Of a stretch of 64,000 nt of DNA, positions 4,108 through 61,524 are shown in pieces (the stretch's first letter is position 1; each line of letters begins with the position of its first letter). Source of the DNA: Candidatus Parcubacteria bacterium. GTDB lineage: Bacteria; Patescibacteriota; Saccharimonadia; UBA4664; JBIOIQ01. Both the position numbers and the translations under genes were made by a program. The stretch spans positions 388,631-452,630 of the forward strand of contig OY970378.1 in assembly GCA_963718875.1 (NCBI GenBank), given 5' to 3'. The notes below the pieces were generated by a model that made no database searches, was not told where the DNA came from, and worked only from the letters and a program-made list of their open reading frames with translations.

Positions 4108-4524
4108 ATGGAAAGAGTTGCAGATATTCATAAAGCTGGCGGCATCATTATACGTGATCGAAAGTTGTTAGTGGAGCGATCCATTGGAAAGCATTTTTTT
4201 ATTGCTCCTGGTGGGGCTATTGAGGCAGGCGAAACTTCCAAGCAAGCTTTGGTTCGTGAGCTTAAAGAAGAATTTTGTATAGATGTGAACGAAACAGATC
4301 TTGAAATTTTTGGCACATTTTATGCTCAAGCTGCTGGAGCAGAGGATAAAATCGTCAAGATGGATGTTTATATAGTAAGAAAGTGGCAAGGAGAACCTAG
4401 GGCTGATAGTGAGGTGGAAGAGATTCGATGGGTCGGTTCGCGTCCAGTTGAGGGGGTAAAAATAGGATCGATATTTGAGCACGATGTTTTGCCAAAACTA
4501 AAAGAGCTTGATCTAATAGATTAG
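4108..4524 (+). CDS. NUDIX hydrolase
   Basis: Nudix box GGAIEAGETSKQALVRELKEEFCI (Gx5Ex7REUxEExGU). Confidence 0.8.
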   Translation: MERVADIHKAGGIIIRDRKLLVERSIGKHFFIAPGGAIEAGETSKQALVRELKEEFCIDVNETDLEIFGTFYAQAAGAEDKIVKMDVYIVRKWQGEPRADSEVEEIRWVGSRPVEGVKIGSIFEHDVLPKLKELDLID

Positions 4525-8267: not shown

Positions 8268-9404
8268 TTGAAACAGCGGGCATATTTGGCGAGTCCATTC
8301 GGGTTTAGCGAAGGTGCCAAGTTATTTATGGAGCGAGTATATGTTCCGCGGTTGGCCGAGGTCGTTGATATTATTAATCCATGGCTTTTGACGAGTGATG
8401 CTGAGATTCATCAGTCTTTTCGTGATGGTAAGGTTGCAGAGTTTAGACATGAGATCGGCAAGCGAAACGCGGATGGAATACAGCGGGCTGATATTGTGAT
8501 TGCTGCTCTTGATGGGCAAGAGCTAGATAGCGGAACGGTGGCTGAGGTTGGGTATGCAGCTGGACTTGGTAAGCCGGTTTATGGTTATCGTAACGACATA
8601 CGTCAAGCAGGCGAGTTACAAGCGACGTTTAACCTGCAGGTGGAATATTTTATTCATTCATCTGGAGGTGTTATTGTTCAAAGTCTAGATGAGTTAGTGG
8701 CAGTAATGGCTAATTTAGATTCGTCTTTGCAAAATTCAGTTGCGCGGGGGCTGAGATCAGATCATGAAATAGAATCGACTGACTCAGACTTGAACGTTTC
8801 AGATAGTTTGCCAGGTTTAGCTGATTTTTTGTTTGAGGTTGGTATTTTAGCAAAGACACCCAGAAGTTTTACCTTTTTGCTAGGTAGCGGTCAGCAATCC
8901 GTGGCCGAACACATAAACAGAATGTCCTACGTGGGCTTAGTATTAGCAACTATGAATGGTGAGGCCGATGTGGGTAAGGTGATTGAAATGTGTTTGCTGC
9001 ATGATTTAGCAGAGGCGCGTACAAGTGACTTAAATTATGTCTACCAAAAGTACGTGGAATCAAATGAGGAGAAAGTTATAAGTGAGATTGCTGATTCTGT
9101 TAGCTTCGGTAAACGCATGCTGGCCGTTCTAAGGGAGTACAAGCAACGCGAAACCATTGAAGCAAAGCTTGCTAAAGACGCGGACAACATTGAGTTTATT
9201 CTCTCGCTCAAAGAACAGATCGACACCGGCAACACACGCGCCGAAACTTGGATGCCGCCGGCTTTGAAGCGTTTAAAAACGTCGGAAGGGCAAAGACTCG
9301 CTGAGGTTATTGTTAAGACAAGTTCGGATGACTGGTGGTTTGGGAATAAGGATGATGATTGGTGGATCAACCGGAAAGGGATGGATCATACAAAAAGATT
9401 CTAG
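8268..9404 (+). CDS. fusion protein: N-terminal nucleoside 2-deoxyribosyltransferase/Rcl-like domain plus C-terminal YfbR-like HD-domain 5'-deoxynucleotidase
   Basis: The N-terminal roughly 160 aa resemble the PF05014-type fold (ASPFGFSEG, VIAALDG, GTVAEVGYAAGLGKPV). The C-terminus has HD motifs (SVAEHINRMS, LLHDLAEARTSD). TTG start with an AAGGGG Shine-Dalgarno. Confidence 0.6.
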   Translation: MKQRAYLASPFGFSEGAKLFMERVYVPRLAEVVDIINPWLLTSDAEIHQSFRDGKVAEFRHEIGKRNADGIQRADIVIAALDGQELDSGTVAEVGYAAGLGKPVYGYRNDIRQAGELQATFNLQVEYFIHSSGGVIVQSLDELVAVMANLDSSLQNSVARGLRSDHEIESTDSDLNVSDSLPGLADFLFEVGILAKTPRSFTFLLGSGQQSVAEHINRMSYVGLVLATMNGEADVGKVIEMCLLHDLAEARTSDLNYVYQKYVESNEEKVISEIADSVSFGKRMLAVLREYKQRETIEAKLAKDADNIEFILSLKEQIDTGNTRAETWMPPALKRLKTSEGQRLAEVIVKTSSDDWWFGNKDDDWWINRKGMDHTKRF

Positions 9405-17516: not shown

Positions 17517-19835
17517 ATGAAAGTATTAGCGAGTTGGTTAAATGAATATTTGTCAACAAAAGTTGACGCAAAAACGGCTGCCGAACGCTTGACAGCGGCT
17601 GGCATAGAGATTGAACAAATAATTGGTTCAATAAAGCTGGATAGAAAAATTGTTGTGGCGCAAGTTAATAAAGTTATTCAGCATCCAAACGCAGACCGTC
17701 TTAAAGTGGTTGAAGTTGATATGGGTACTGGAGTTGTTCAGGTTGTATGTGGTGGGCCAAATGTTGCTAGCCGCCAAAATGTAGCTTTGGCGTTGCCTGG
17801 GGCAAAACTTCCGGATGGCAAAATTATTGAAAAAGCGCTTATACGAGGCGAAAACTCAGAAGGAATGATATGCAGTGCTTTTGAACTCGGCTTAGGAGAT
17901 GATCATGAAGGCATTATGGTGCTTGATTCTGGATTGACACTTGGCGCAACATTGTGCGACATAGTGGATTTTGGCGATATCTTAGACTTGACTACGGCTG
18001 CTAATAGATCAGACCTACTTTGTACAGTAGGGTTGGCTCGAGAAGTGGCTGCTCAAGGCGGGGAAGTTGCATTAGAGCCAATAATTGAGGCCAAGGAATT
18101 TAAGGTTAATGAGGGAATGATCGGTGAGCTAGACGGAGGTCAGGTTAAAAAATATGTACTTACTCATGTCAAATTAAACAAAAACGGGGATAGTCCGCAA
18201 TGGATGCAGCAGCGGTTGCGGGCTGCGGGACTGCGTCCTATAAATACTGTTGTAGATATTACCAACTACGTTATGTTGGAGCTGGGTCAACCGTTGCATG
18301 CGTTTGATAGTAGGAAAGTAACATTGCCAATAAGTGCTCACTCCCCTGGCGAAAACACCAACCTGACTATTTTAGACGGCTCTATACGCGGACTCTCCCC
18401 TAACGATCTTGTAATTTTTGACAAAAATGGTCCTATAGCTTTGGCCGGTCTTATGGGGGGCAAACTTAGTGAAATAACTTCAACAACTAAGGAAATTTAT
18501 CTTGAATCGGCTTGTTTTGACGGGACTAAGGTGCGAAAAATGGCGGTTCGTCAAGGGTTACGGACTGATGCCAGTTCCCGCTTTGAACGTAATCTGCCTC
18601 TCCCCCTTGTAGCTCTTGGTATGAGGCGTGCAATTGAATTGTTAGAAGAATTATGTGATGCCCAGATTACGGCAATTTCCAGTGTTGAGCCCCCCCTATC
18701 CCCGGCTGGGACACTGGAGGTTTCTTTGGATCGAATTAACGCCCGACTGGGCATTAATGTGACCCAACAACAAGCTGTTTTGGCATTATCAAACTTAGGG
18801 TTTGAAATAAATGGTAGCGACCAAAGGTTTAACCTCTCTATCCCCTGGTGGCGAACCGATGTTTTGGATGAGGCAGATATTGTGGAAGAGCTAGGTAGAA
18901 GCATTGGCTATGATGCCCTACCCCCCACACTTCCTACCTGGACACCTACAAAGGTAGACTTTGATGAGTATTGGCCAAAACTTTGGCGGCTTAAGGCGCT
19001 TTTGCGTGGTTTGGGCTTGGACGAAGTAGTTACCTACTCTTTTGTAAGCGAGAAACAGTTGGATGACTTTAATCATGATAAGCAAAGCCATTTAAAGCTT
19101 AAGAACCCCCTTTCGGTAGAGCAAGCTTACTTACGTAGCAGTTTGGCGCCCAGTTTGGTGGCAACAGTAGCGCGTAATGCTCGGAACTTCCCTAGCTTTG
19201 GTATATATGAGATTTCTAAAGTATATTTAGCGACAGATGATCATACGCAACAGCCGGCTGAGCCAATGCGTTTGGGTGTAGCGTGGCGAATTGATAACCC
19301 GTATGCAAAGGTAAAGAGCGTAGTAGATACTTTATCTCGTGATTTTGCACAGTTTAAGGTTAAGCCGAATGAAAACTCTATTTTCACGCATGGTAAAAGT
19401 GCACAAATCTTGTTGGATAATCAGCCAATTGGCTGGATTGGTGAAATTAACAAGGCCATTTTGAAAAGCAATAAAATTACTAGTGATGTAGGCTATCTGG
19501 AAATTGACTTGATGCCGTGGCTGACACAGCCAAATAGTAAAAAAGCTACCCCAATAAGTCGCTTCCCTGCTATTACCCGAGACTTATCGATTATTGTGAG
19601 TTCTGACAAGCTATGGAGTGACATTAATGAAATTGTGCAAAATGCCAACGTAGGAAAAGTTGAATACTTAAATGAGTATTATGGTTTGGATTTGGAGAAA
19701 GGTACAAAAAGTGTGTCTATGCGGTTAACCTTTAGTTCTCTAGAGCGGACCTTGGCAGATGGGGAGGCCGATGCGGCGACTGTGAAGGCGATGGACGCAT
19801 TATCGCAAGAACTTGGGGCAATTCAGAGGGGTTAA
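17517..19835 (+). CDS. pheT: phenylalanyl-tRNA synthetase beta subunit
   Basis: N-terminal tRNA-binding (EMAPII-like) region (VVAQVNKVIQHPNADRLKVVEVDMG), B3/4 and B5 regions, C-terminal FDSA-like domain; adjacent to pheS. Confidence 0.9.
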   Translation: MKVLASWLNEYLSTKVDAKTAAERLTAAGIEIEQIIGSIKLDRKIVVAQVNKVIQHPNADRLKVVEVDMGTGVVQVVCGGPNVASRQNVALALPGAKLPDGKIIEKALIRGENSEGMICSAFELGLGDDHEGIMVLDSGLTLGATLCDIVDFGDILDLTTAANRSDLLCTVGLAREVAAQGGEVALEPIIEAKEFKVNEGMIGELDGGQVKKYVLTHVKLNKNGDSPQWMQQRLRAAGLRPINTVVDITNYVMLELGQPLHAFDSRKVTLPISAHSPGENTNLTILDGSIRGLSPNDLVIFDKNGPIALAGLMGGKLSEITSTTKEIYLESACFDGTKVRKMAVRQGLRTDASSRFERNLPLPLVALGMRRAIELLEELCDAQITAISSVEPPLSPAGTLEVSLDRINARLGINVTQQQAVLALSNLGFEINGSDQRFNLSIPWWRTDVLDEADIVEELGRSIGYDALPPTLPTWTPTKVDFDEYWPKLWRLKALLRGLGLDEVVTYSFVSEKQLDDFNHDKQSHLKLKNPLSVEQAYLRSSLAPSLVATVARNARNFPSFGIYEISKVYLATDDHTQQPAEPMRLGVAWRIDNPYAKVKSVVDTLSRDFAQFKVKPNENSIFTHGKSAQILLDNQPIGWIGEINKAILKSNKITSDVGYLEIDLMPWLTQPNSKKATPISRFPAITRDLSIIVSSDKLWSDINEIVQNANVGKVEYLNEYYGLDLEKGTKSVSMRLTFSSLERTLADGEADAATVKAMDALSQELGAIQRG

Positions 19836-20007
19836 AGTAGGAATCAGGGATTAGTAGATAGGTTTACCTTTCTCCATTGCCCCCATCTATTGGTCCTTGA
19901 TCTTTTCATCTGATGTATAATGATACTACCCTGTAGCTAATCTGCTACACAAGATCTGCTGCGTTTTTTCGTCGGCTGACGGATGACGGGCGGGAGGGAG
20001 TACCCAA

Positions 20008-20649
20008 ATGACCACTACGCTTGTTGGCACCCCGGATCCTGAAGACCGAGGTGATGGCGACTCAGAGGAGAACGCAGTAAATCCCGTACCTCAACACGAG
20101 CGGATGCCTCGTAGACGGGATTCCAAGACATTCAGTTTTCGCGTGGCCGACTGTCATGGCTATGTAACTGTTGGGTTGTACGACGACGGTAGGCCCGGAG
20201 AGATTTTTCTTCGGCTCACTAAGCAAGGCACTACTTTGGCGGGAGTATTGGATGCCTTTGCGTCAGCCGTGAGTATTGGCTTGCAGTGCGGCATTTCACT
20301 GCGTGCATATGTACAAATGTACATAAACATGCGATTCGAGCCAGCGGGGATAACTGCTGATCCCGAGATTCGTTTCGCCAGCTCCGTAATTGATTATGTG
20401 TTTCGTCGGCTGGCACTGGAATATATGCCGTTCGATGAACGGGCACAGCTGGGTATTTTGACTACCACAGAAAGGTTGCATCCAGTATCAGATCAAGGTC
20501 CTTTGCCAGGGGAAGAGCCAGACGTGGACCAAGGCACTTCGCCACAATCGAAGGACGCCCCGTACTGCTACGTCTGTGGTGTAGTGATGCAGCGGGCGGG
20601 AGCCTGTTTCGTCTGCAGCAGCTGCGGTACCACTAGCGGCTGTTCGTAG
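20008..20649 (+). CDS. orphan C-terminal fragment of adenosylcobalamin-dependent (class II) ribonucleotide reductase, NrdJb-like; GC-rich
   Basis: HGYVTVGLYDDGRPGEIFLRLTKQGTTLAGVLDAFASAVSIGLQCGISLRAYVQMYINMRFEPAG and a C-terminal Cys cluster (CYVCG...CFVCSSCG) match the last 200 aa of NrdJ. GC is about 55 percent against a backbone near 43 percent. No N-terminal partner gene is in the window. Confidence 0.55.
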   Translation: MTTTLVGTPDPEDRGDGDSEENAVNPVPQHERMPRRRDSKTFSFRVADCHGYVTVGLYDDGRPGEIFLRLTKQGTTLAGVLDAFASAVSIGLQCGISLRAYVQMYINMRFEPAGITADPEIRFASSVIDYVFRRLALEYMPFDERAQLGILTTTERLHPVSDQGPLPGEEPDVDQGTSPQSKDAPYCYVCGVVMQRAGACFVCSSCGTTSGCS

Positions 20650-20730
20650 TCGTACAAAACGTTCGATGGGTTGGCCCGGCTTCCTCTGGGGGATGCTCGG
20701 GTCGACCTAGATTTTTGTTGAAGCAACGGG

Positions 20731-20760
20731 TTGTCTACCCGTAACCATAAGTGGTATAAT
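20731..20760 (+). promoter_or_regulatory. promoter TTGTCT-18 nt-TGgTATAAT with the ATG (20767) 7 nt downstream of the -10 (putative leaderless)
   Basis: -35 at 20731-20736, extended -10 at 20752-20760; the in-frame ATG at 20731 listed in the ORF track lies inside this promoter. Confidence 0.4.
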
Positions 20761-20766
20761 TTATTC

Positions 20767-21204
20767 ATGAATCCAACTCAACCAACACCGGCTCCATCAC
20801 CAGAGCTGCCAAAAGTACCTCAAGTAGAAAACATACCTAATAACCAACCTTCAGCTCCGGAACAACCTGCTGCGACAGAGGCAGCTCCGCAACCGGGACA
20901 GGCAGTGGTTATGCCTACATCTGTGGCGGCCGTACCTACTCCGCCTTCAGTCACGCCTGTTGTTCCACCTCTGGTGGCTACATCCCCGGCTGTTCCAGTT
21001 GTGCCGGGGCCTGCTATTGCCGATGACGTTGATGTGATTGAAAAAGAATGGGTCGACCAAGCCAATGCAATTATTGCGGCTACCAAGGAAGATCCTTACA
21101 AAGAAGAAGAAGCCATTGAGGACTTGCAGGTTGATTACATGAACAAGCGCTACGGTAAAGTGATTAAGAAAGACGAGCCAAAAGACAATGGACCACAAAC
21201 GTAA
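20767..21204 (+). CDS. proline/alanine/valine-rich hypothetical protein
   Basis: Low-complexity P/A/V-rich N-terminal two-thirds with a conserved-looking charged C-terminal tail. The start is set at 20767 because of the promoter; the ORF track alternative is 20731. Confidence 0.4.
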   Translation: MNPTQPTPAPSPELPKVPQVENIPNNQPSAPEQPAATEAAPQPGQAVVMPTSVAAVPTPPSVTPVVPPLVATSPAVPVVPGPAIADDVDVIEKEWVDQANAIIAATKEDPYKEEEAIEDLQVDYMNKRYGKVIKKDEPKDNGPQT

Positions 21205-21238: not shown

Positions 21239-24200
21239 ATGGTTGCAGTAGTCCTAGTTATTTTAATATTGGCTATAGGTTTTGCGTGCGTTGCCTATGT
21301 GCTTTATCGGCGAACTTTACGCAGGGCAAAAAACATTGAGCGTGGCCTCAAAATGGTGCCTTTATTGATCCATTTGCCGCCTAGAAGTGCTGACACTGAG
21401 GCTGGTTCGCGGGACGTGCGTGAAGTGATGCGGGAAAAGGTGGCGCAAGCCGAGGTTTTGTATAATCTTATATCTGGTACAGCCACAACTGGATTTAAAA
21501 GCCGATTTTATGGTCAACGCCACGTTGCATTGGAAATTATAGCGACTGACGGAATGGTACATTTTTACGCGGCTGTACCGATAGCGTTGGTGCCGGTCAT
21601 CACTAACGCTATTCAAACTGCCTATGCAGGGGCAAAAATTGAAGAGGCCGAAGACCATAACATCTTTAACCCACACGGAAAGTTATCAAGTACTGCTGGC
21701 GGTGAACTGGTACTTAAGGCTAAGGCTGCCTACCCAATTGCAACAATTGAAAAACTGGAGCGGGATCCCATAGAAGCTCTTATAAATGCCTTGAGTAACT
21801 TAAAGCCTGGTGAAGGTGTCGGTATTCAGATTATGCTTCGCCCAGCCGCTAAGGGGTGGGAGAAAAAAAGCCTAGAGCTGGTTAAAAAAATGCGACATCA
21901 TGCTGGGGCGAAAGCTTCTTCTACCTATAGTACCCGTGATGTTTTAATGGCGGCGGTTAAAGCTCCTGAAGAGCGCCGCCAAGAAGTTGCAGCTAATTCT
22001 CCGCAAGCTCTATATATGAGCGACTTAGAACAGTCGGTCGTAAAAGCTATCGAAGAAAAAACTACTTTGGCTGCTTATGAAAGTTTGGTAAGAGTGTTGG
22101 TTTCGGCTAATAGCGCCCAAGAAGCGCAAAATTTACTACGTGAGGTAAGCTCTAGCTTCTCATTGCTGGATGCCCCTGGGCTTAACGGCTTTAAGTTTTT
22201 GCCTGCGAATGACATTGCCGGCTTGGTAACGGCTTTTATATTGCGTTTTTTCCCTCCAGAACTAAATCACACCATACTTAATAGTAAGGAACTGGCAACT
22301 TTGTTCCATTTGCCCGACGCCCAGTTTACGGCAAATTCGGAAGTTGAGCGACTGGCGAGCAAAGAGGTGGACGGACCGCCAGCTATTCCCTCCACTGGCC
22401 TATTGATGGGATATAACATTTTTCGAGGGACTAAAAAAGAAATTCATCTTTCGCCTGAGGACCGTCGCAGGCATACCTACATTGTAGGACAAACCGGTAC
22501 AGGTAAAAGTACTATCTTACAGAATTTGGCGGTTCAAGACATGCTGGCAGGCAATGGCTTTGCTTTTATTGACCCTCATGGTGATGAGGCAGAAAAAATG
22601 CTTTCAATGGTGCCCAAAAACCGCTCTGAAGATGTAATTTATTTTAATCCAGGGGATACCGATCATCCGTTAGGACTGAATTTATTTGAGTTTAGTGACC
22701 CGGCGCAGAAAGATTTTTTGATTCAAGAAACTATTAATATGCTTTATAAGCTGTACGATCCGAATGGAACGGGTGTTATTGGTCCTCGGTTTGAACAATG
22801 GTTTCGTAATGCCGCCCTTACACTGATGAGTGATCCAAATGGGGCTACTTTTATTGAAATTCCAAAAGTCTTTACTGATAACGATTATCTCAAGCAAAAG
22901 TTCAAATACATTCAAGACCCAACAGTTATGGAGTTTTGGACTAAAGAAATGGGCCAAACCAGCGACTACCATAAAAGTGAAATGTTGGGTTATTTTGTAA
23001 GTAAGTTTGGTGCGTTTCAGCAAAATGAAATTATGCGTAATATTATTGGCCAAACCAAAAGCGCATTTAACCTGCGTGACATTATGGATAACAAAAAAAT
23101 CCTAATTGTAAACTTGAGTAAGGGTAAATTGGGCGAGCTTAACTCGAGGTTGTTAGGTATGATGTTTGTAATTAAATTCCAGGCGGCGGCTATGAGTCGT
23201 GCAAATGTCCCTGAGGCTGACAGACCGGATTTTTGCTTATATGTAGACGAGTTCCAAAATTTTTCAACCGATTCATTTGCTTCAATTTTGAGTGAAGCTC
23301 GTAAATATCATTTGAACTTGATTGTGGCGAACCAGTTTATAGGGCAGCTCAGTGATGAAATTCGGGACGCAGTGTTTGGCAACGTTGGGACTATTATGAG
23401 CTACCGAACTGGCCCGGAAGATGCGGAGTTTTTAGTTAAGCAGTTTGCTCCTATTTTTGATGCTCACGATATGGTCAATATACCCAACCACAATGCCGTT
23501 ATCCGACTGATGATTAGCGGGTTACCTTCACAGCCCTTTAGCATAACAGCTTTACCGCCGCTGGGAGTCGAAAATCCAGAGCTGGGCGAAGCCATGAAAC
23601 AGTTGTCGAGGGCTAAGTTTGGTTCAAGTCGAGCGCAGGTGGAACAGGAGATATTTGCGCGATTGAGTAGTAAGCCAGTGCAATCTCCAATTGCGAGCCA
23701 AACACCTGTAGCTGGGTTAAATTCAGGCGTACCACAGCCAACTTCTATGCCTAATCCACAATCGCCAATGTCGGCACTGCCTGGTCCCAATAGAGCTTTG
23801 CCTGGGGCTGCAGTTGGTGGTATTAATCCTACGGTAGCACCGGTTTTGTCTGGCAGCTCTTCGTCTCCAGTACCTTCTACGTCTACAGCGATGCCTGCAC
23901 AACCAAGAGTAGCTTCCGCTTCGGTCTTAAAACCGCTGGATAGCCAGCCTATAGTAGACACCCAGGCTCCTGGAGCAAATCCCAATAATGTTGCCACAAC
24001 TAACCCTACAGCTATAAGTCTGTTAACTCCAGCTTCGGTAGTAGGCGCGCCGCCTGCATCTTTGGTTTCTGTGGCGCCACCTAACGATAAAATAGATAAA
24101 AGCCAAGCTCAGGGGCAACCTCCTTCAAGTCAGGTAGCTCCGGTAGTTTCGCTGCACCATGATGCCGTTCCGCCAGCGCCGGCATCTATTCCGGCAAGTC

Positions 24201-25726
24201 CCAGCACCTTAAACACAGGTTACAGTTTTCAAAAGTCTGCTAGCCCGGTCGCTCAGCCAAACCAGCCCTTACCTTCTCCAGATGTTTCTACATCTGCACC
24301 TAATCAATTTGAAAAACCACAGTTGGTTCCTATCCCAATAGCTCGCGCTCAGTCCGAAAAAACAATCGCGCCTAGATTAGACCCTGTACAGGATATTCCT
24401 GGCGAAGGTAGTTTAAATGAGTCAGTCATTAAGCCGCCAACTCCAGTATTGAATTCGGCTCTTACGCCCGCCCGAGAAGTTCAATCACTGCCTTTTAATG
24501 CCACTACTGCTGATGCGGCAATCCCAGTTCGTCCAGCTGTTGTAGCTGCTCCTGCGACACATTCGAGTATGGCTAACCAACCAATTTCGCATTTGGCTAC
24601 CACACCCACACCCACACCCACACCCACACCCACACCCACACCCACACCCACACCCACACCCACACCCACACCCACACCCACACCCACACCCACACCCACA
24701 CCCACACCCACACCCACACCCACACCCACACCCACACCCACACCCACACCCACACCCACACCCACACCCACACCCACACCCACTATTGATAAACCGAAAA
24801 ATGAGCCAGCTTTAGATTTAGAAAAATATCAAATTACAATTGCACCTGCTTTTCAGCAGTTGAGAGATAAACCTTTTGAGGCGCAAAATTCGGGGGCAAT
24901 GATTGCTTCTGAGTTATCATCAAATCCGATGTCGATGCCTTTGCCAGTAGCCGATAAACCTCAGTTTCATGGGGAGCAAGTTGTGGCGGAAAAGCCGCAA
25001 GATAAGATTATAGATTCTGTAGCGTCTCAAAGCAGCCATGACGATGTAAATAATGTTTTTGCTGCTCAAACTTCTTTAGAAAAGTCAGATCAGATGGGCT
25101 CAGCGATAGCCGAACCTGGTCCAGGCCAGGAAGCTCTTATTCCGCCGCCGCAATCCAGTGAAAAAAAATCAACTTTGTCCGAGTCTGATACTGTTGATCA
25201 CCACGAATCTGTGATCAAACACGATCCCAAAGGACGGTTGATTGTTACGCCTAGGCCCGCAGTAGAATGGTTGCCTGAGGAGAAAACCGATAGCCTTCCG
25301 CCGCCCGCTAAGGAGCCATACAAACCGGCATTGGAGGCTTTGGCAGCTTTGGACAAACAAAAGGCTTTAGAGGCAGCGGCAGCCAAGGCTAGAGCCGATG
25401 CGGAAGTTAAATTAGAAGCCGAGGTCAAGCGACCCACGACTATTAAAGCAAATCTTAAAAAAGTTAAAGCTGAAGCTAAGCCTATGGGTAAGGCTATTGA
25501 CTCAGCTAAGGCAGAAAAAATTATTAAGCCTATCCGTTCAGGTGCTACGCGTCACAATCCACCAACTCCCACAATTATTCTACCCAGTAAAAATCCAGAT
25601 ACAGTAACGCCCCAGGTTGGGTTGTCAACTGTAAATCAGCCACCTACTCCAGTAATAGAAAAACCATCGGTATTGGCTCCAGGAGAAATATATGTGGACG
25701 AAAAGGGCAACGTAGTTACGGGCTAA
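21239..25726 (+). CDS. large membrane-anchored P-loop ATPase of the TraD/TraG/VirD4 (type IV coupling protein-like) family with a roughly 750-aa disordered Pro/Ser/Thr/Ala-rich C-terminal tail
   Basis: N-terminal TM helix. Walker A YIVGQTGTGKST, FIDPHGD (the DPKGD-like motif of coupling proteins), Walker B LYVDEFQNF, and NLIVANQ. The tail contains (TP)n and a Lys/Ala-rich segment. Confidence 0.65.
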   Translation: MVAVVLVILILAIGFACVAYVLYRRTLRRAKNIERGLKMVPLLIHLPPRSADTEAGSRDVREVMREKVAQAEVLYNLISGTATTGFKSRFYGQRHVALEIIATDGMVHFYAAVPIALVPVITNAIQTAYAGAKIEEAEDHNIFNPHGKLSSTAGGELVLKAKAAYPIATIEKLERDPIEALINALSNLKPGEGVGIQIMLRPAAKGWEKKSLELVKKMRHHAGAKASSTYSTRDVLMAAVKAPEERRQEVAANSPQALYMSDLEQSVVKAIEEKTTLAAYESLVRVLVSANSAQEAQNLLREVSSSFSLLDAPGLNGFKFLPANDIAGLVTAFILRFFPPELNHTILNSKELATLFHLPDAQFTANSEVERLASKEVDGPPAIPSTGLLMGYNIFRGTKKEIHLSPEDRRRHTYIVGQTGTGKSTILQNLAVQDMLAGNGFAFIDPHGDEAEKMLSMVPKNRSEDVIYFNPGDTDHPLGLNLFEFSDPAQKDFLIQETINMLYKLYDPNGTGVIGPRFEQWFRNAALTLMSDPNGATFIEIPKVFTDNDYLKQKFKYIQDPTVMEFWTKEMGQTSDYHKSEMLGYFVSKFGAFQQNEIMRNIIGQTKSAFNLRDIMDNKKILIVNLSKGKLGELNSRLLGMMFVIKFQAAAMSRANVPEADRPDFCLYVDEFQNFSTDSFASILSEARKYHLNLIVANQFIGQLSDEIRDAVFGNVGTIMSYRTGPEDAEFLVKQFAPIFDAHDMVNIPNHNAVIRLMISGLPSQPFSITALPPLGVENPELGEAMKQLSRAKFGSSRAQVEQEIFARLSSKPVQSPIASQTPVAGLNSGVPQPTSMPNPQSPMSALPGPNRALPGAAVGGINPTVAPVLSGSSSSPVPSTSTAMPAQPRVASASVLKPLDSQPIVDTQAPGANPNNVATTNPTAISLLTPASVVGAPPASLVSVAPPNDKIDKSQAQGQPPSSQVAPVVSLHHDAVPPAPASIPASPSTLNTGYSFQKSASPVAQPNQPLPSPDVSTSAPNQFEKPQLVPIPIARAQSEKTIAPRLDPVQDIPGEGSLNESVIKPPTPVLNSALTPAREVQSLPFNATTADAAIPVRPAVVAAPATHSSMANQPISHLATTPTPTPTPTPTPTPTPTPTPTPTPTPTPTPTPTPTPTPTPTPTPTPTPTPTPTPTPTPTPTIDKPKNEPALDLEKYQITIAPAFQQLRDKPFEAQNSGAMIASELSSNPMSMPLPVADKPQFHGEQVVAEKPQDKIIDSVASQSSHDDVNNVFAAQTSLEKSDQMGSAIAEPGPGQEALIPPPQSSEKKSTLSESDTVDHHESVIKHDPKGRLIVTPRPAVEWLPEEKTDSLPPPAKEPYKPALEALAALDKQKALEAAAAKARADAEVKLEAEVKRPTTIKANLKKVKAEAKPMGKAIDSAKAEKIIKPIRSGATRHNPPTPTIILPSKNPDTVTPQVGLSTVNQPPTPVIEKPSVLAPGEIYVDEKGNVVTG
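24599..24783 (+). repeat. perfect hexanucleotide microsatellite (CACACC)x30 inside the CDS, encoding (Thr-Pro)n
   Basis: Three consecutive 60-nt sequence lines are identical and consist solely of CACACC units; the repeat is in frame (2 codons per unit). Confidence 0.95.
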
Positions 25727-28196: not shown

Positions 28197-30695
28197 TCAG
28201 AGATCTTTTAGGAGCTTTTGGACGGCTCGCGTAATTTCAGGGATTGATAAATCGGGGTCGATTTTGGCAGCGGGACCGATTTTAATCGTGACTTTTCCAA
28301 AGTGAGGAAGCTGGTGTTTGTCTCCTGCCATGATTTTTTCTAGCCCCATATGTTTAATTGGCACTACGGGTACTTGTAGTTCTTTAACCATCCAGCCAAT
28401 TCCGTTTTTGAAAGACTGCAATTGGCCGCTAGGTGAATGTTCGCCTTCGGGGAAAAACAAGACGTTCCAACCGGAATCTAGTAATTCGCCGGTGTATTCC
28501 AAGCTGCGCTTAAAGCCTGTTTGCTTGGGGAGTGGGTAAGAATTAACCATTAATGCAGTGTAGTAGTCGTAAAGGCGCCATAATAAATGGTTTAGGGATT
28601 GGCTTTTAAATAATGGGTCTCCGGCATTTAAGAAATATTCTTTCCAGGTTGCCACAGCTATATTTTGCCTGACATTCCAAGGTAAAGACATAAGAACGTT
28701 GGGAGCGTCAAAGTAGCCGATGTGATTGGATATAAAAATGACTGGTTGGTCGAGATTATTTAGATTGTGACGCCCGATAACCTGGCGGCGGCAAAATAAT
28801 CGGATGACGTTATCGGCTATTATCAAATTAAAGCTGGCTCTGATAATTTTAGGCACAGGACTAAGTAGCCAGCGTCGAAATGTAGTGGAGTCTTTCCCGG
28901 TTTGACGGTTTTTGATAAGTGCTTCCAGTTCCGAAACAGTAGTATTGGCCTTTATATCTTCTTCGACTAAGTCGATATTGAACTCTTGCTCCAAGGCGGT
29001 TATAAGCTCAACTCGACCGACGGACGTCAGATTAAGATCCAAAGCTAATCTTGCTTGTGGTCGGATCAAGTGGGGTTGAGTTTGGCAGACCTGAGATATT
29101 AGGTGGTAAAGTTTTGTTTGTGGGTTGAGTGGGGGTGTGGCAGAAGCGTTAGGACTATCGGTGAGTTTTTCAATTACCAGGGGCTTTTTGATCTTCATTG
29201 TGGTAGTGCGCGGAAAGTCGTCTTGGTGCCAGATTCCGGAAGAGGTAATGCGCTGATTTTCGTTCAACTGCAAATTGGTGGAATCGATGATTTGTTTTAG
29301 GTTGGCCTGGTTATTGCTGAGTATTACTTCTGCGTGAATTTGCTCGCCTTGCTTGCTAGGAAGGGCAACGACGCATATGGCTTTCACCCCCGGCTGCTTG
29401 CTTAAGATAGCTTCGATGTCTTCAGGGTAAATATTTAAGCCCGCACTGGTGACGATAACGTCTTTTTTACGTCCTTTGAGATAAACATAGCCATTACTAT
29501 CAACCCCGCCAATGTCACCAGTTTTCATCCAGCCGTCTTCAAACAGGGTCGTGGTTTTGTCGGAGTCTAGGTAGTAACCCGAAGTAATGTTGCCCCCACG
29601 AGCGTAGATTTCTCCATCTGGCCCAAACTTTAGCTCTACTCCAGGTAGAGCTTTGCCGACTGATCCAGTTACGACTGTGTCTAGCGGGTTGGCGGTAAGG
29701 ACAGGAGCAGATTCGGTAAGGCCATAGCCCTGGATTACGCGAAAGCCTAGGTTATGCCAAAATGACTCCAGATCGTCACCTAGTGGTGCCCCGCCGCAGA
29801 TAAAATATTCAAAATGAGTGCCGAAACGTTGCCAGACTTTTCGAAATAAGATTTTTTTGCCCCATGCGGGTGCTTTGATTTGAGCTAAACGATTAAAGAT
29901 TTTGGTTTTGCCGTGTTTTTCGACTTCACGGGTGATGCCATCTGCAAGTAGTTGAAGCAAGCGAGGCACTATTACAATATTGGTGACATGCTCTTCTGCT
30001 AGGGTTTTAAAAATTAGCTTAGGGCGTAGGCCTTTCATATATATAATGGTGCAGCCTGCGCTTAGGGGTGTCAGGAAGCCGGGGTTTTGTTCGAATAAAT
30101 GACTAAGAGGAAGCAGGGATAGAAAGGTTTGGTCGGGGCGTACCTGAATGGTTTGTTTGATGGCTTGGATGTTGGCGATAAGGTTGCCGTGGGTTAGTAG
30201 GACTCCTTTGGGGTCGCCAGTTGTACCCGAAGTGTAGACGATTTCGAGCAAGTCGGAGCTGGCGATGGTTGGGTTGTTGGCTAGAGCGGGATCCAGGTCT
30301 TGAATTTGACTTAACAGTCTATCTAAAACCAGGGTTTTGACATCTATTTTGGAGGGAAGTTTATATTCGGAGTGGATTAACAACTTAGAATTAACTAGTT
30401 TTTGAATTTTGGCGACGTATTCGGCCGTAGCCAGGTAATCGATCGGGACTATAACAATTCCAGAACGGGCAGCAGCTAAAAAAATTATTCCCCAGTTCGG
30501 GCTATTAAAGCCCCATAAGATAAGTTGGTCTCCTTGCTTAAGTCCCAGTTGGTCGAGAAGGACGCAGGCTTGCAGGATCTGGTGGTGTAGTTCTAGGTAG
30601 GTGGTGCTGAAAGTACGAAACCCAGTTTTATATCTCAGGGCAGGCTTGTCTCCCTGGCTAGGGAAGGAACTGATAATGTCGCCAATTGTTTTCAC
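28197..30695 (-). CDS. tri-domain fusion: acyl-AMP ligase (acyl-ACP/CoA synthetase) - acyl carrier protein domain - 1-acyl-sn-glycerol-3-phosphate (lysophospholipid) acyltransferase
   Basis: AMP-binding motifs (YTSGTTGDPKGV, GYGLTE, KKDVIV). The central carrier-like segment (LDLNLTSVGRVELITALEQEFNIDL) has a candidate phosphopantetheine Ser. C-terminal PlsC motifs are present (NHIGYFD, FPEGEHS). It resembles a rearranged Aas-type enzyme. Confidence 0.7.
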   Translation of the reverse strand: MKTIGDIISSFPSQGDKPALRYKTGFRTFSTTYLELHHQILQACVLLDQLGLKQGDQLILWGFNSPNWGIIFLAAARSGIVIVPIDYLATAEYVAKIQKLVNSKLLIHSEYKLPSKIDVKTLVLDRLLSQIQDLDPALANNPTIASSDLLEIVYTSGTTGDPKGVLLTHGNLIANIQAIKQTIQVRPDQTFLSLLPLSHLFEQNPGFLTPLSAGCTIIYMKGLRPKLIFKTLAEEHVTNIVIVPRLLQLLADGITREVEKHGKTKIFNRLAQIKAPAWGKKILFRKVWQRFGTHFEYFICGGAPLGDDLESFWHNLGFRVIQGYGLTESAPVLTANPLDTVVTGSVGKALPGVELKFGPDGEIYARGGNITSGYYLDSDKTTTLFEDGWMKTGDIGGVDSNGYVYLKGRKKDVIVTSAGLNIYPEDIEAILSKQPGVKAICVVALPSKQGEQIHAEVILSNNQANLKQIIDSTNLQLNENQRITSSGIWHQDDFPRTTTMKIKKPLVIEKLTDSPNASATPPLNPQTKLYHLISQVCQTQPHLIRPQARLALDLNLTSVGRVELITALEQEFNIDLVEEDIKANTTVSELEALIKNRQTGKDSTTFRRWLLSPVPKIIRASFNLIIADNVIRLFCRRQVIGRHNLNNLDQPVIFISNHIGYFDAPNVLMSLPWNVRQNIAVATWKEYFLNAGDPLFKSQSLNHLLWRLYDYYTALMVNSYPLPKQTGFKRSLEYTGELLDSGWNVLFFPEGEHSPSGQLQSFKNGIGWMVKELQVPVVPIKHMGLEKIMAGDKHQLPHFGKVTIKIGPAAKIDPDLSIPEITRAVQKLLKDL

Positions 30696-31018
30696 TTTTC
30701 TAGCACCACCGTTGCAATAGCGTAGTCACCATCATGGCTAATTGAAACGTTGTGTGAGAGGTAGTGGTCGAAAGTGGGGGAGAGTGCAATCTGGGGTTTG
30801 CCGTTTTGGTCGTAGGTTATGGCGATGTCGCGAAACTTTGGGATTATACCAACAGCTTTGAAGAAAGCTTCTTTGGCGGCAATGATCCCCGCAATGTGTT
30901 CAGGTTTGTGTCCTGGTAGTTCGCTTTCTTGAAAGAACTTTGCCAAGGTTTCAGGTTGATCAATCAACTTGGTGATGTTGGGAATATATACGATGTCTGT
31001 TCCGCAATGTATACTCAA
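30692..31018 (-). CDS. acpS: holo-[acyl-carrier-protein] synthase (4'-phosphopantetheinyl transferase)
   Basis: Roughly 108 aa with GTDIVYI at the N-terminus, KEAFFKA and SISHDGDYA motifs; its stop overlaps the start of the downstream fusion gene by 4 nt. Confidence 0.75.
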   Translation of the reverse strand: MSIHCGTDIVYIPNITKLIDQPETLAKFFQESELPGHKPEHIAGIIAAKEAFFKAVGIIPKFRDIAITYDQNGKPQIALSPTFDHYLSHNVSISHDGDYAIATVVLEK

Positions 31019-31236
31019 AAACCCACACTCCTTTGATACTTTGACTATAACATGAGTTTAAGGAATTGGGTGAAAGCTCTGCCTGGGGATTCAAGAGAAC
31101 CTCCAGGCAGAGCGAGACTATTCGCCCGACTCTGGGTCGGGGAAGTAGAAGGTGCCGTCGTCGTTCATGGCGGGCATGCCAGAGTAGAGAAGCATGTGTC
31201 CAGCGCGCATGGATCGATGAGCCATGCGCACGCGTG

Positions 31237-31644
31237 AAAAAGATCGAACCTTCAGATAAGATCTTTTTAGACCAGTCGACTATACCTGGTGCCGGGAGAG
31301 GGGTTTTTGCAAAACGAGCTCTTACTAAAGGGGAAGTCATCGAAGTATGTCCGGTTATCGAGATTCCGCTGACCGACTCATCGAACGACGATCAAAATGG
31401 ATCGTTAACTAACTACTTCTTTTACTTTGGGAATGGGCTTGCAGTGGTTCTTGGTTTCGGATCAATCTATAACAATTCTTACACTCCTAACGCAACCTAT
31501 ATCAAAAAGCCATCTGATGGCGTGGTAGAATTCCAGGCTACAGAAGATATTGAGGCCGGTATAAATATAATTGTAAATTACAACAACGGGGATCCTGATG
31601 ATAAATCGACATCTATGAATAAAGGTGTTCTCCTCGTAAGCTGA
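31237..31644 (+). CDS. bacterial SET-domain protein (putative lysine methyltransferase)
   Basis: GAGRGVFAKRALTKGEVIEVCPV (the SET N-terminal GxG motif), NNSYTPNA (the NHSxxPN equivalent) and a C-terminal ...INIIVNYNNG. The start is uncertain: the ORF is open from 31066 (TTG) through a GC-rich Arg-rich stretch, and a GTG at 31237 is given here. Confidence 0.5.
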   Translation, partial: KKIEPSDKIFLDQSTIPGAGRGVFAKRALTKGEVIEVCPVIEIPLTDSSNDDQNGSLTNYFFYFGNGLAVVLGFGSIYNNSYTPNATYIKKPSDGVVEFQATEDIEAGINIIVNYNNGDPDDKSTSMNKGVLLVS

Positions 31645-42112: not shown

Positions 42113-42562
42113 ATGCCTAATATCATAGTGTCAATGAAGACAATGCTTTTAAAAAATGGTAAGTTTCTAGTATTAAAACAAACTCGACCAACACTTTTCT
42201 ATTGGGATCTTCCTGGAGGAAAGTTGGAGTATGGTGAAACCCCTGAGACAGCGCTAAAACGTGAAGTAAAAGAAGAGACCGGTATAGATATTGAACCTGG
42301 TAAATATATTGGATTATGGTGGTTTTTTAGCCCAACTAATAAACATCAGCTAATTTGTCCGACGTTTTTAAGCACGATCTCAGAAGACTCAGTTGACACT
42401 GTGAATATTGAGAATAACCCAGCAGAGGAGCACATTAAAGACTACGCTTGGGTGGAGAAAGATAAATTTCTTAAAGGGGATTACCCTGTTTTGAATGAGA
42501 GCTTGAAAGACCTTATTAATGATCTTAATATTAAAGTCCTCAAAGATTTAAATAACGTCTAA
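42113..42562 (+). CDS. NUDIX hydrolase
   Basis: Nudix box GGKLEYGETPETALKREVKEETGI. Confidence 0.75.
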   Translation: MPNIIVSMKTMLLKNGKFLVLKQTRPTLFYWDLPGGKLEYGETPETALKREVKEETGIDIEPGKYIGLWWFFSPTNKHQLICPTFLSTISEDSVDTVNIENNPAEEHIKDYAWVEKDKFLKGDYPVLNESLKDLINDLNIKVLKDLNNV

Positions 42563-46776: not shown

Positions 46777-48326
<1,550 letters not shown>

Positions 48327-51700: not shown

Positions 51701-51776
51701 TGGTGGAGCATGTCGGGATCGAACCGACCACCTCCTGCTTGCAAAGCAGGCGCTCTACCGAATGAGCTAATGCCCC
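51701..51776 (-). tRNA. tRNA-Ala (anticodon TGC)
   Basis: Reverse complement GGGGCATTAGCTCATTCGGTAGAGCGCCTGCTTTGCAAGCAGGAGGTGGTCGGTTCGATCCCGACATGCTCCACCA; G3-U70 pair, anticodon loop CTTTGCAAG. Confidence 0.9.
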
Positions 51777-51861
51777 TCCAGCTCGTGCCTAATATATGAA
51801 TGAGCTTAGTGTGCAAAGGGCTCCAAGCTTCAATACTATGTTGCTTGATGTTTGACTTGCT

Positions 51862-51938
51862 TGGTGGGCGCACAGGGACTCGAACCCCGGACCTCGTCAT
51901 TATCAGTGACGCGCTCTAACCAGCTGAGCTATGCGCCC
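51862..51938 (-). tRNA. tRNA-Ile (anticodon GAT)
   Basis: Reverse complement GGGCGCATAGCTCAGCTGGTTAGAGCGCGTCACTGATAATGACGAGGTCCGGGGTTCGAGTCCCTGTGCGCCCACCA; anticodon loop CTGATAA. Confidence 0.9.
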
Positions 51939-56609: not shown

Positions 56610-56784
56610 TGATCGACATGAGAGGATGCTCTTTCGGCCTGCCACTGGGGTGGGCCGAAAGAGCAGTTTTTATTTTTGACGATAAACCGATGGATATGCA
56701 TTGTTTTTGAATCGTGTTATAACTCTAAAGCAAGTGGGATACTATTCTGGGCCTAATGCAATATCGGACGAAAAGGGAGCAAGG

Positions 56785-57222
56785 ATGGTTCAGCAGGTGG
56801 CAGTGTCAGGTGATGTGAGCGCTGAGCTGATGGTTCGGCTGAGGAGGCTCGTCAGCGATTACCAGGGGTACGGTGTGAGTACCGTGTTGGTCTGGTGGGC
56901 GCTCGGCCGCATTCGCAAGGCCATGGGTCCTGCAGGTAACTCCATCAGTGGGCGAGAGTTCGTACTGGCTTTGCGTCAGCTCGAAGCTGCTGGCAAGGTG
57001 ACGGCGGTAAGGCTGGAGGGATCAAAACCAACCTTCGAGATTACGGATGTATGGCGGCCCCGGAGTGGCCCCTTCTGGGGGAGTCCGGTGTTGGCTAGTC
57101 CAGTGAAGCACAGTTCCTCAGGACCACAAAGCTCCTCAAGGGCATCAAGCGCGAGCGACCAGCGGTCGCGACTTTACCGCGAAGAGGATCTCTACTCGAG
57201 TACTTATGTGAATAGCTGGTAG
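56785..57222 (+). CDS. small winged-helix-like protein, paralog 4 of 4 (with S-rich C-terminal extension)
   Basis: ATG at 56785 preceded by AAGGGAG (preferred over the TTG at 56701 used by the ORF track); SGREFVLALRQLEAAGKVTAVRLEGSKPTFEI motif; followed by a 12-bp stem hairpin terminator at 57228-57266. Confidence 0.4.
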   Translation: MVQQVAVSGDVSAELMVRLRRLVSDYQGYGVSTVLVWWALGRIRKAMGPAGNSISGREFVLALRQLEAAGKVTAVRLEGSKPTFEITDVWRPRSGPFWGSPVLASPVKHSSSGPQSSSRASSASDQRSRLYREEDLYSSTYVNSW

Positions 57223-57767
57223 AAGCAGGTTCCTGCGGTCCCTTTGTTTTTGGTACCGCAGGAACCATCGGTTTTGTTCAAAATGGGTCTTGACCCTAGA
57301 ATCACTCCTGTGATAAACTTTTGAAAGGTCAAATTGGAGTTCACGTATGAGTAGACAACTAACCAGTCGTAACGGAGAGCACATTCTCTAGCGTAAGTAA
57401 GTTGCCTTTTTTAATGTGAGCTCCGCGCCAATACCGCGGAGTTTTTGAATCTTAACAAACAACGGCCCTTTCATTTGGTGCATTTCGTCGTCAGATCCTC
57501 CGTTCCGCATTCGACGTAGGTCAAACTACGCCTCATTTGCGGTACTCGGCTATTCCTAGAACTACACTCAACTGAAAGTCCCTACCGTTTATAAGTAAAT
57601 TTTAAGATTAGCGCTTGATTAAACCAAAAGCGTTAATCTGGGTAAACTGTTGTACCGTACTGGTATAACAGTAAAATGACAATTTCAACCGATCCGCCGA
57701 CAAAGCGGATCAACAAATGTGTATTAGCAATTTGTCTTTACAAATTGCTAGTCAAATTCTTGTAAGA

Positions 57768-61143
<3,376 letters not shown>

Positions 61144-61408
61144 TTTTTTTACAACACTTTCTATTGTCATATTGGATGAAAGTTCAAGATGATAGTGAAA
61201 GTGCCGATTTGACTAGCAATTTGTGACGACAACGTCATTTACAACCCAAATTAAAATTTACGATAAGTTTCATTTCACAAAGTTTTTCGAAGTATCATTT
61301 AGGACTACAGCAATAGTTGGCGTTCGAAAATGGAAAGTGAAAATTGTATAAATGAGATTGACTGGGCAAAAGCCCCAGTCTCTATGGGAGAAATTATTCG
61401 CCCAGTGA

Positions 61409-61518
61409 GGCCGGTGCTTTTGGCGAGGAGGATACACCGGTTCCCATCCCGAACACCGAAGTTAAGCTCCTCAGCGGCGATGATACTGCATATAGCGGGA
61501 AAGTAGCACGGTGCCGGA
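61409..61518 (+). rRNA. rrf: 5S ribosomal RNA
   Basis: CCGGTTCCCATCCCGAACACCGAAGTTAAGC core and a pairing 5'/3' helix I; about 110 nt, 265 nt downstream of the 23S. Confidence 0.85.
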
Positions 61519-61524
61519 TTAATC

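Follow-up and report, generated by a model that had tools for sequence, protein, structure and literature searches.

Dimeric class II ribonucleotide reductases (RNRs) of the NrdJd type end in a cysteine-rich domain (CRD), a module that consists of an IscU-like alpha+beta domain and a zinc finger (Burnim et al. 2022, PMC9669993). In the NrdJd of Stackebrandtia nassauensis, six cysteines of this domain (C920, C923, C933, C936, C939, and C945) serve in zinc binding and in electron relay to the active site, and the CRD has been equated with the NrdJb protein of the split Pseudomonas enzyme; the monomeric form, NrdJm, never has a CRD (Loderer 2017, PMC5704485). NrdJb of Pseudomonas aeruginosa, a protein of 229 amino acids (aa), performs thiol-disulfide exchange for NrdJa and is needed in vivo, and the known split systems encode nrdJa and nrdJb in one operon (Crona et al. 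2015, PMC4520616). In our literature search, neither RNR tail domains of Saccharibacteria nor the function of stand-alone proteins of the TSCPD family were the subject of any paper. Here we describe a 64-kb stretch of DNA (contig OY970378.1; the window) in which a gene for a complete, NrdJd-type CRD stands alone directly after pheT, the location given in the original prediction. We are highly confident of the identity of this gene and of its evolutionary history, in which the tail domain alone would have been acquired horizontally from Acidimicrobiia-type actinobacteria. For the favored statement as a whole, that this is a functional acquired gene whose product acts in trans as an RNR subunit, we consider the case evenly balanced.

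The open reading frame (ORF) starts with ATG 172 nt downstream of the pheT stop at 19835 and contains HGYVTVGLYDDGRPGEIFL and a cysteine-rich C-terminal end (Table 1). It had been assigned to the C-terminal module of an adenosylcobalamin (AdoCbl)-dependent RNR with a Cys-rich zinc ribbon, and profile and alignment searches agree. The TSCPD family (PF12637) matches aa 48-137 with 38.7 bits (E = 1.2e-9) against a Pfam cut-off of 22.8, and the best NCBIfam model, NF005122 for actinobacterial-type B12-dependent RNR, is matched at only positions 735-875 of its 960 (E = 5e-59), with 199.9 bits against the 859 required for a full-length equivalog, which places the protein outside the full-length RNRs. 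In a tblastn search with a full Acidimicrobiales NrdJ as query, residues 729-929 matched window positions 20089-20643 at 67% identity (E = 7e-78), and no second match was found anywhere in the window. Pfam scans of the window ORFs found no RNR catalytic domain (PF02867/PF08471-type), and the statement that no nrdJa lies nearby accordingly holds for the whole 64 kb.

The N-terminal limit of the protein falls approximately at a domain border. It aligns, weakly, with the VAQPL segment directly past YRDNCK, the end of the catalytic barrel, and there is no catalytic-domain debris upstream of the ORF in any frame. Where fused NrdJ proteins have the barrel-to-CRD linker, the stand-alone protein has instead an N-terminal extension in which MTT-LVGTPDPED is kept across three orthologs (the window protein and two others, P0003 and P0004). 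An AlphaFold2 model from 92 homologs reached a mean predicted local distance difference test score (pLDDT) of 81.8 (Table 1), and Foldseek found no significant match for it in the PDB. The zinc-ribbon cysteines are C187, C190, C200, C203, C206, and C212, invariant across the three orthologs, with C187, C190, C203, and C206 as predicted zinc ligands and C200 and C212 as the predicted redox pair. The cysteines inside the IscU-like domain are C49, which is family-conserved (Val in P0003), and C94, which occurs in the window protein alone. The likeness to the IscU/NifU Fe-S scaffold gives no evidence of Fe-S function, there being no cluster-ligand cysteines and no significant Foldseek PDB match. 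A split-intein C-extein was rejected: there is no Pfam intein match and no HN + C/S/T block in the N-terminal 30 aa, and the PF14890 intein matches belong to catalytic parts of donor-group proteins.

The window comes from a Saccharibacteria/TM7-type genome, its closest GyrB homologs (70-88% identity) being named Candidatus Saccharimonadia. A domain search of species-representative genomes with the CRD gave 257 confirmed matches; the best 80 of the 257 carry Actinomycetota-type titles, bar one labelled Burkholderiales, and are mostly from Acidimicrobiia/Acidimicrobiales, with identity of up to 67% over aa 28-213. In those genomes the CRD ends an open frame of 930-3000 aa, the longer ones with inteins, except for contig-cut frames and a few short ones in long-read or intein-bearing assemblies. 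We note that Acidimicrobiia nrdJ frames are often 1300-3000 aa long with intein or LAGLIDADG domains (L002 5666-10765; loci L004-L083). Neighbor-joining (NJ) trees of 162 CRDs (200 bootstraps; no proteobacterial NrdJb sequence included) recovered the three orthologs as monophyletic in 197-199 of 200 bootstraps and as sister to 17 Acidimicrobiales sequences (117/200), within further Acidimicrobiia layers. The phylogeny that had been proposed for finding a donor thus puts the clade next to Acidimicrobiales NrdJ, and together with the best 80 matches it bears out the suggestion of a horizontal, actinobacterial origin. The corrected distance from the window protein to the nearest donor-clade sequence is 0.29, against 0.35-0.36 to its own orthologs. 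The phage and plasmid collections held no plausible vector; the best phage match, to the 3' end of a high-GC nrdJ truncated by its contig, comes from an "unverified" record and was rejected as a vector.

Base composition retains a trace of this origin. The GC contrast first noticed (about 55% in a backbone near 43%) is real if slightly overstated, with 53.7% in the CRD ORF and 45.6% in the window. The 31 other window ORFs average 45.5 +/- 3.1% GC and 41.2 +/- 5.5% at third codon positions (GC3), from which the CRD ORF, with a GC3 of 52.8%, departs by z-scores of ~2.7 and ~2.1. CRD DNA of the donor clade has 71% GC and 97% GC3, so that at a GC3 of 53% against the 41% background the gene has covered about four fifths of the distance: amelioration toward the recipient's codon composition is mostly complete. 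This bears on the possibility of an assembly or binning artefact, either a chimeric actinobacterial join or a full nrdJ broken by sequencing errors. Many of the database matches listed are in fact incomplete or frameshifted stretches of Acidimicrobiia nrdJ in long-read assemblies, several of which break this gene, hence the many short "TSCPD" database entries. The GC3 of 53% is nevertheless far from the 97% of Acidimicrobiales, and Saccharimonadia genes lie on both flanks on one contig, with pheT 172 nt away. The exact window protein is found on that 1,189,924-bp contig and on a Logan contig, the same gene order recurs in the Logan assembly of run ERR12037361 (possibly the same reads), and the same architecture is present in contigs of SRR27544730, JGI 3300071358, and JGI 3300064033. 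We regard an artefact as scarcely credible, and a full-length NrdJ that would emerge after assembly correction, named at the outset as a refutation, is excluded by the adjacent pheT and by the same order in these other contigs.

The P0003 ortholog (213 aa, 66% identity; Logan SRR27544730, locus L003) follows the pheT 3' end and has its own Shine-Dalgarno sequence and a strong terminator hairpin. Downstream of the P0004 ortholog (217 aa, 63% identity; JGI 3300071358) the gene order of the window recurs, with a 145-aa gene first and a large one behind it. Between the window gene and L003 the proportion of synonymous differences (pS) is 0.81, which is saturated, while that of nonsynonymous differences (pN) is 0.23 and the nonsynonymous rate (dN) is 0.27; pN is 0.18 in the IscU-like core, the ratio of dN to the synonymous rate (dN/dS) is 0.05 in the Zn ribbon, and dN is highest in the linker, to which indels are limited. 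We took 89 fused or fragmentary CRDs as the conservation reference, in which 120 columns are at least 90% conserved (6 of the 120 lie in the barrel region absent from stand-alone proteins). At 83 of these 120 near-invariant columns all three orthologs are identical, and the remaining changes are mostly conservative (V/L/I/M), with the QPTLPGVEE motif as the exception. At least three related genomes keep the CRD gene under purifying selection, and a fourth has a divergent copy of it.

The original prediction had spoken of an orphan fragment or remnant, and decay of a once complete transferred nrdJ could explain why nothing of NrdJ but its last ~200 aa is found here, why GC is elevated, and why the gene is missing from several close relatives; the window also has at least one apparently frameshifted gene (tRNA_edit, 12159-12616). 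The pN far below pS and the kept conserved columns instead argue for a maintained protein and no decaying piece, as does the dN/dS of the Zn ribbon. The ORF is intact in four genomes, with neither a broken frame nor a dN/dS near 1: in the window and in L003 it comes with a Shine-Dalgarno sequence, a start, and a terminator, and it is uninterrupted in the P0004 contig and in a more distant relative, L170, despite saturated synonymous sites. The coincidence of the gene limit with the domain border, with no catalytic debris upstream, the retention of all six cysteines in the three orthologs, and the presence of orthologs at the same locus likewise do not fit decay, and we consider a pseudogene very improbable.

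Syntenic contigs were reached through PheT homologs, and in relatives that lack the gene the site is nearly closed. A promoter-like motif, AACCATAAGTGGTATAAT, lies 907 nt past pheT here and 61-73 nt past it in those relatives, and we conclude from this difference that ~840 nt were inserted in the pheT-downstream spacer, with an approximate left junction. The motif forms the right edge of the insertion; it is found just past pheT in the empty-site contigs L165 and L167 and past the CRD copy in L170, and the right-hand junction GGGTTGTCYA...AACCATAAGTGG is common to L170 and the window. GC of 19836-20743 is 52.3%, and no flanking direct or inverted repeats or transposon-like ends typical of mobile elements were found at the insertion. 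The empty site is seen in L165/L166, L167 (GCA_044449985.1), and L169, where 35-98 nt separate pheT from a homolog of the window 145-aa gene (141-167 aa in these relatives, with a Pro-rich N terminus and a GPAIADDVDVIEKEWVD C-terminal half), which in turn precedes a large DUF8128 ATPase gene; the contig P0248 probably has the same arrangement. The contig with the closest PheT (62%), L164, stops 192 nt past pheT, before the downstream promoter; it has a leader-like hairpin and probably carries the insertion too.

The more distant relative L170 (JGI 3300064033; PheT 52%, GyrB 75%) encodes at 12403-12933 a 176-aa divergent CRD between pheT and the same downstream promoter (tblastn E = 3e-29, ~43% identity; no Pfam match on record). 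This copy has a shortened linker and a GC3 of 77% in a 57% background. In a by-eye reading of the alignment it has derived states in common with the three orthologs, e.g., RFASSV and GI(S/P). NJ does not place this long-branch copy with the ortholog clade (75/200 bootstraps), and we take it as orthologous from its position and the shared right junction, not from sequence alone. In an NJ tree of PheT, the window pairs with L164 (79%); a clade with 99% support adds L165, L169, and L167, and its sister is L170 (100%). The simplest history has a single gain before the L170 node and later loss from the lineages with the empty site; the site may also have gained the gene twice, given that NJ leaves the long L170 branch apart from the others. 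When a profile of the three orthologs was searched against metagenomes, the matches listed included fused actinobacterial NrdJ only and no further stand-alone orthologs. A search of 1.84 billion representatives gave 8323 matches, and at 50% identity the clade falls into an Acidimicrobiia cluster; several ~205-230-aa Met-initiated CRDs occur among the representatives, where genomic context is absent, so that they are not placeable.

The insertion carries putative expression signals of its own. All three upstream elements first pointed out are present (TGTATAAT at 19914, CGTCGGCTGACG at 19970, and GGGAGGGAG at 19992), and of the promoter-like signals claimed the -10-like box TGTATAAT stands, while a sigma-70 scan called no full promoter upstream of the CRD gene. 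At the equivalent position L003 has TGGTATGGT and L170 has AGTATAAT. A duplication of the promoter of the downstream gene as the source of the CRD promoter was rejected, the similarity being too weak. Further 3' lies a small leader hairpin whose counterpart in L003 is GCAAC-aatccg-GTTGC, differing from the window core GTAGC/GCTAC by two compensatory pairs between conserved flanks (ACCCTG and CAAG.TCTGCT); in L164 the hairpin is CCACGGG-taaa-CCCGTGG. With 3 sequences and z-scores between -1.5 and -1.9, the indication of a conserved 5'-leader hairpin is weak; the leader as a whole does not fold with significant energy (z = -1.86), and Rfam searches of 19800-20800 up to E = 10 found no family and no riboswitch, cobalamin included. 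The Shine-Dalgarno sequence of L003, GGAAGGGAG, lies 6 nt 5' of its ATG. Past the CRD stop, L003 has a perfect 14-bp hairpin followed by GGTTTTATT (z = -4.41), and the L170 copy also has a hairpin 3' of its ORF; the corresponding window hairpin at 20667-20709 was not called by a simple terminator scan. An imperfect palindrome, TTGTAAYACA...TGTRTTACRA, occurs upstream of the CRD promoter region in L003 (125-160) and L164 (12448-12482) and was not seen in the window; it is distinct from the NrdR box and may be an operator.

Table 1. Coordinates of the CRD gene, its predicted domains, and the surrounding signals in the window
Feature	Position	Strand	Basis or remark
CRD gene, 213 aa + stop	20008..20649	+	Pfam, NCBIfam, tblastn
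Acidic N-terminal extension, predicted disordered, aa 1-30	20008..20097	+	pLDDT 45-59, alignments
IscU-like alpha+beta (TSCPD) domain, aa 38-157	20119..20478	+	
Variable linker, aa 158-184	20479..20559	+	pLDDT 50-60
Six-Cys zinc ribbon, aa 185-213	20560..20646	+	Spacing CX2CX9CX2CX2CX5C
AlphaFold2 model of the protein			aa 1-30 disordered, acidic; 38-157 confident, three strands + helices; ~158-184 low-confidence linker; 185-213 small ribbon
Extra DNA, pheT stop to conserved downstream promoter	19836..20742	+	907 nt here vs ~61-73 nt in empty-site relatives
-10-like box TGTATAAT	19914..19921	+	No acceptable -35 at 16-18 nt spacing
Small 5'-leader hairpin UGUAGC-uaaucu-GCUACA	19932..19949	+	Minimum free energy fold
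Second leader stem-loop	19956..19993	+	Includes CGTCGGCTGACG (19970-19981)
Shine-Dalgarno sequence GGGAGGGAG	19992..20000	+	Ends 7 nt 5' of ATG
Terminator-like hairpin (20667-20709), then T-rich run TTTTTGTT	20667..20722	+	Fold z = -3.07
Conserved promoter AACCATAAGTGGTATAAT of downstream 145-aa gene	20743..20760	+	Promoter scan match 20731-20760

We hypothesize that the CRD protein acts like Pseudomonas NrdJb, as a disulfide-relay subunit. Its IscU-like domain would dock on, or oligomerize with, a catalytic RNR subunit whose gene lies elsewhere in the 1.19-Mb genome, and the flexible linker would allow the Zn-ribbon tail to bring the C200/C212 dithiol to the active site, where the pair would re-reduce the catalytic disulfide at each turnover before being re-reduced by a cellular reductant. 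That the residues near-invariant in fused enzymes are retained speaks for unchanged molecular contacts, and a class II partner is plausible because an AdoCbl-dependent RNR has been reported for environmental Saccharibacteria (McLean 2020, PMC7427843). Taken on its own, this trans-acting role is tentative and falls slightly short of an even balance, and a number of observations weigh against it. No catalytic RNR gene was found in the window or in ~100 kb of syntenic DNA of relatives, the CRD gene is a solitary unit behind pheT and not part of an nrdJa operon, and a search of the window for the NrdR-box consensus, allowing up to 3 mismatches, gave no match. The RNR of environmental Saccharibacteria is annotated as a ribonucleoside-triphosphate reductase (PMC7427843), and if this is a monomeric NrdJm it would be an unlikely partner, because NrdJm is never CRD-bearing. 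S. nassauensis NrdJd-deltaCRD could not be reconstituted by adding a CRD that had been expressed separately (PMC5704485). Close relatives manage without the gene, whether lost or never present. Fused CRDs carry a near-invariant QPTLPGVEE motif behind the IscU-like domain; in the window protein this motif is degraded, and in L170 a single-base difference (agt vs tgt) puts Ser in the place of the last cysteine, one of the redox pair. Finally, the organism may salvage deoxynucleosides, as suggested by a nucleoside 2-deoxyribosyltransferase-HD fusion and three NUDIX genes encoded in the window.

Much of this would also be expected if the captured domain had been repurposed, as the original prediction allowed, and no longer served an RNR, working instead with another client as a small zinc-ribbon/IscU-like factor in thiol redox or protein binding. 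Stand-alone TSCPD proteins of unknown role are common. In addition to the missing RNR gene and NrdR box in the window, the accessory distribution of the gene, the loss of the QPTLPGVEE motif, and the salvage genes, such a change of role would accommodate the L170 copy, which at ~43% identity and without the terminal redox Cys still has an intact ORF. It is harder to reconcile with the window clade, which largely keeps the near-invariant residues of RNR-fused CRDs and all six cysteines in exact spacing, as continued service to an NrdJ-like core would predict. The IscU-like part, moreover, has no Fe-S-type ligand set, with C49 alone family-conserved and even this a Val in P0003, and the gene neighborhood points to no alternative client. 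We consider repurposing somewhat unlikely.

Cultivated Saccharibacteria are episymbionts of Actinomycetota, and a further possibility is that the CRD is directed at the host, where it would bind the dimeric NrdJ of an actinobacterium as a mimic or competitor of its tail and so manipulate the host supply of deoxynucleoside triphosphates. The closer distance of the window protein to the donor clade than to its own orthologs would fit, as would the acidic disordered extension, conserved in the three orthologs and absent from fused proteins, and the neighboring genes for a large DUF8128/DUF87-type ATPase and surface proteins. The same neighbors are present in empty-site relatives, however, and adjacency to them is for this reason no functional linkage; no signal peptide or known secretion signal is shown and there is no evidence for an Acidimicrobiia host, which leaves the idea entirely inferential and, in our view, improbable. 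In a broader formulation, CRD-positive Saccharimonadia would have no NrdJd-type catalytic subunit of their own and would keep the captured regulatory/redox tail under selection either as an RNR-independent Zn-ribbon thiol relay or as a mimic acting on the dimeric NrdJ of the actinobacterial host. We regard this as doubtful; if true, no earlier case of an RNR tail domain with an independent existence would be known.

Other features of the window are recorded here in their own right. The rRNA genes are unlinked (16S, 46777-48324; 23S, 57764-61152; 5S, 61410-61519), with a 16S-23S gap of 9.4 kb that holds protein genes and, on the opposite strand, tRNA-Ile and tRNA-Ala (51701-51938, -). At 3389 nt the 23S match is longer than its 2925-nt model, which implies insertion(s) of ~460 nt, and no group I intron family scored at the gathering threshold. 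Just upstream of the 23S, a 173-aa ORF (56701-57222, +) has the highest GC of the window (55.7%, GC3 59.8%) and no Pfam match, and is either a foreign piece or no real gene. A second accessory insertion near the CRD gene (28197-31018, -) comprises an 832-aa AMP-binding/PP-binding/acyltransferase protein (Aas-like) and a 4'-phosphopantetheinyl transferase, genes that are absent between the CLIPPER-domain gene and gyrB in L165 and L167. A 192-aa SET-domain protein (31066-31644, +) is encoded directly upstream of gyrB and is also present on the Logan contig of the same organism. The 1495-aa protein of ORF 21239-25726, whose homologs carry DUF8128/DUF87 and measure 1137-1392 aa in relatives, contains ~50 Pro-Thr repeats encoded by a long perfect (ACCCCA)n tract at 24481-24783. 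The YbaK-like aminoacyl-tRNA editing domain (PF04073) at 12159-12616 (-) is halved over two overlapping ORFs, by a frameshift or a sequencing error. The nucleoside 2-deoxyribosyltransferase fused to an HD phosphohydrolase lies at 8268-9404 (+), and the fusion is also found in L164, with the HD part alone in L165 and L167; the NUDIX genes are at 4108-4524, 10566-11012 (-), and 42113-42562, and purD is at 62632-63891.

The locus would represent a second, independent route to a free-standing CRD, in which the tail alone crossed from Actinomycetota to Patescibacteria/Saccharimonadia and was then long maintained. It would show the CRD to be an autonomous, selectable module and offers a natural system for probing the role of the domain, whose physiological reductant, like the role of its IscU-like part, is unsettled even in the model enzyme (PMC5704485, PMC9669993); it also has a bearing on the deoxynucleotide supply of these reduced cells.

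Among described systems, NrdJb of P. aeruginosa and other Proteobacteria (PMC4520616) sets the precedent of a CRD that functions in trans, and the likeness to NrdJa/NrdJb drawn in the original prediction is apt at the level of architecture: both are separately encoded polypeptides of ~210-230 aa made up of an IscU-like domain and a redox-Cys Zn ribbon. The two differ in that the window gene is a domain-only insertion behind pheT and not an in-place split of a resident nrdJ. As in the split RNRs the CRD is on a gene of its own, but pheT occupies the place directly upstream that nrdJa has in their operon, and no nrdJa lies within 20 kb upstream or 43 kb downstream in the window. Its origin would also be independent, since its nearest relatives are fused Acidimicrobiia NrdJ and not proteobacterial NrdJb, among the best 80 of 257 matches and in the NJ trees, which held no proteobacterial NrdJb. 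The CRD of S. nassauensis NrdJd (PMC5704485) is the same domain with the same six-Cys spacing (offset 733), and the window protein lies within the 150-220 aa CRD range given by Loderer 2017 (PMC5704485); that CRD is fused to the barrel, whereas the one described here is free-standing, with an acidic N-terminal extension and a degraded QPTLPGVEE. The NF005122-type RNRs of Acidimicrobiia/Acidimicrobiales, 60-67% identical over aa 28-213, form the sister group or nest of the window clade by NJ, but are proteins of 930-3000 aa encoded at 71% GC and 97% GC3, against 213 aa, 54% GC, and 53% GC3 here. Like the stand-alone TSCPD proteins (PF12637), the window protein is above the gathering score; unlike them it lacks the TSCPD motif and the in-domain four-Cys set and has the NrdJ-specific Zn ribbon. 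The window protein is thus an NrdJb by architecture, and by descent it would fall outside the proteobacterial NrdJa+b subclass, as a derivative of actinobacterial NrdJd that arose by domain-only capture.

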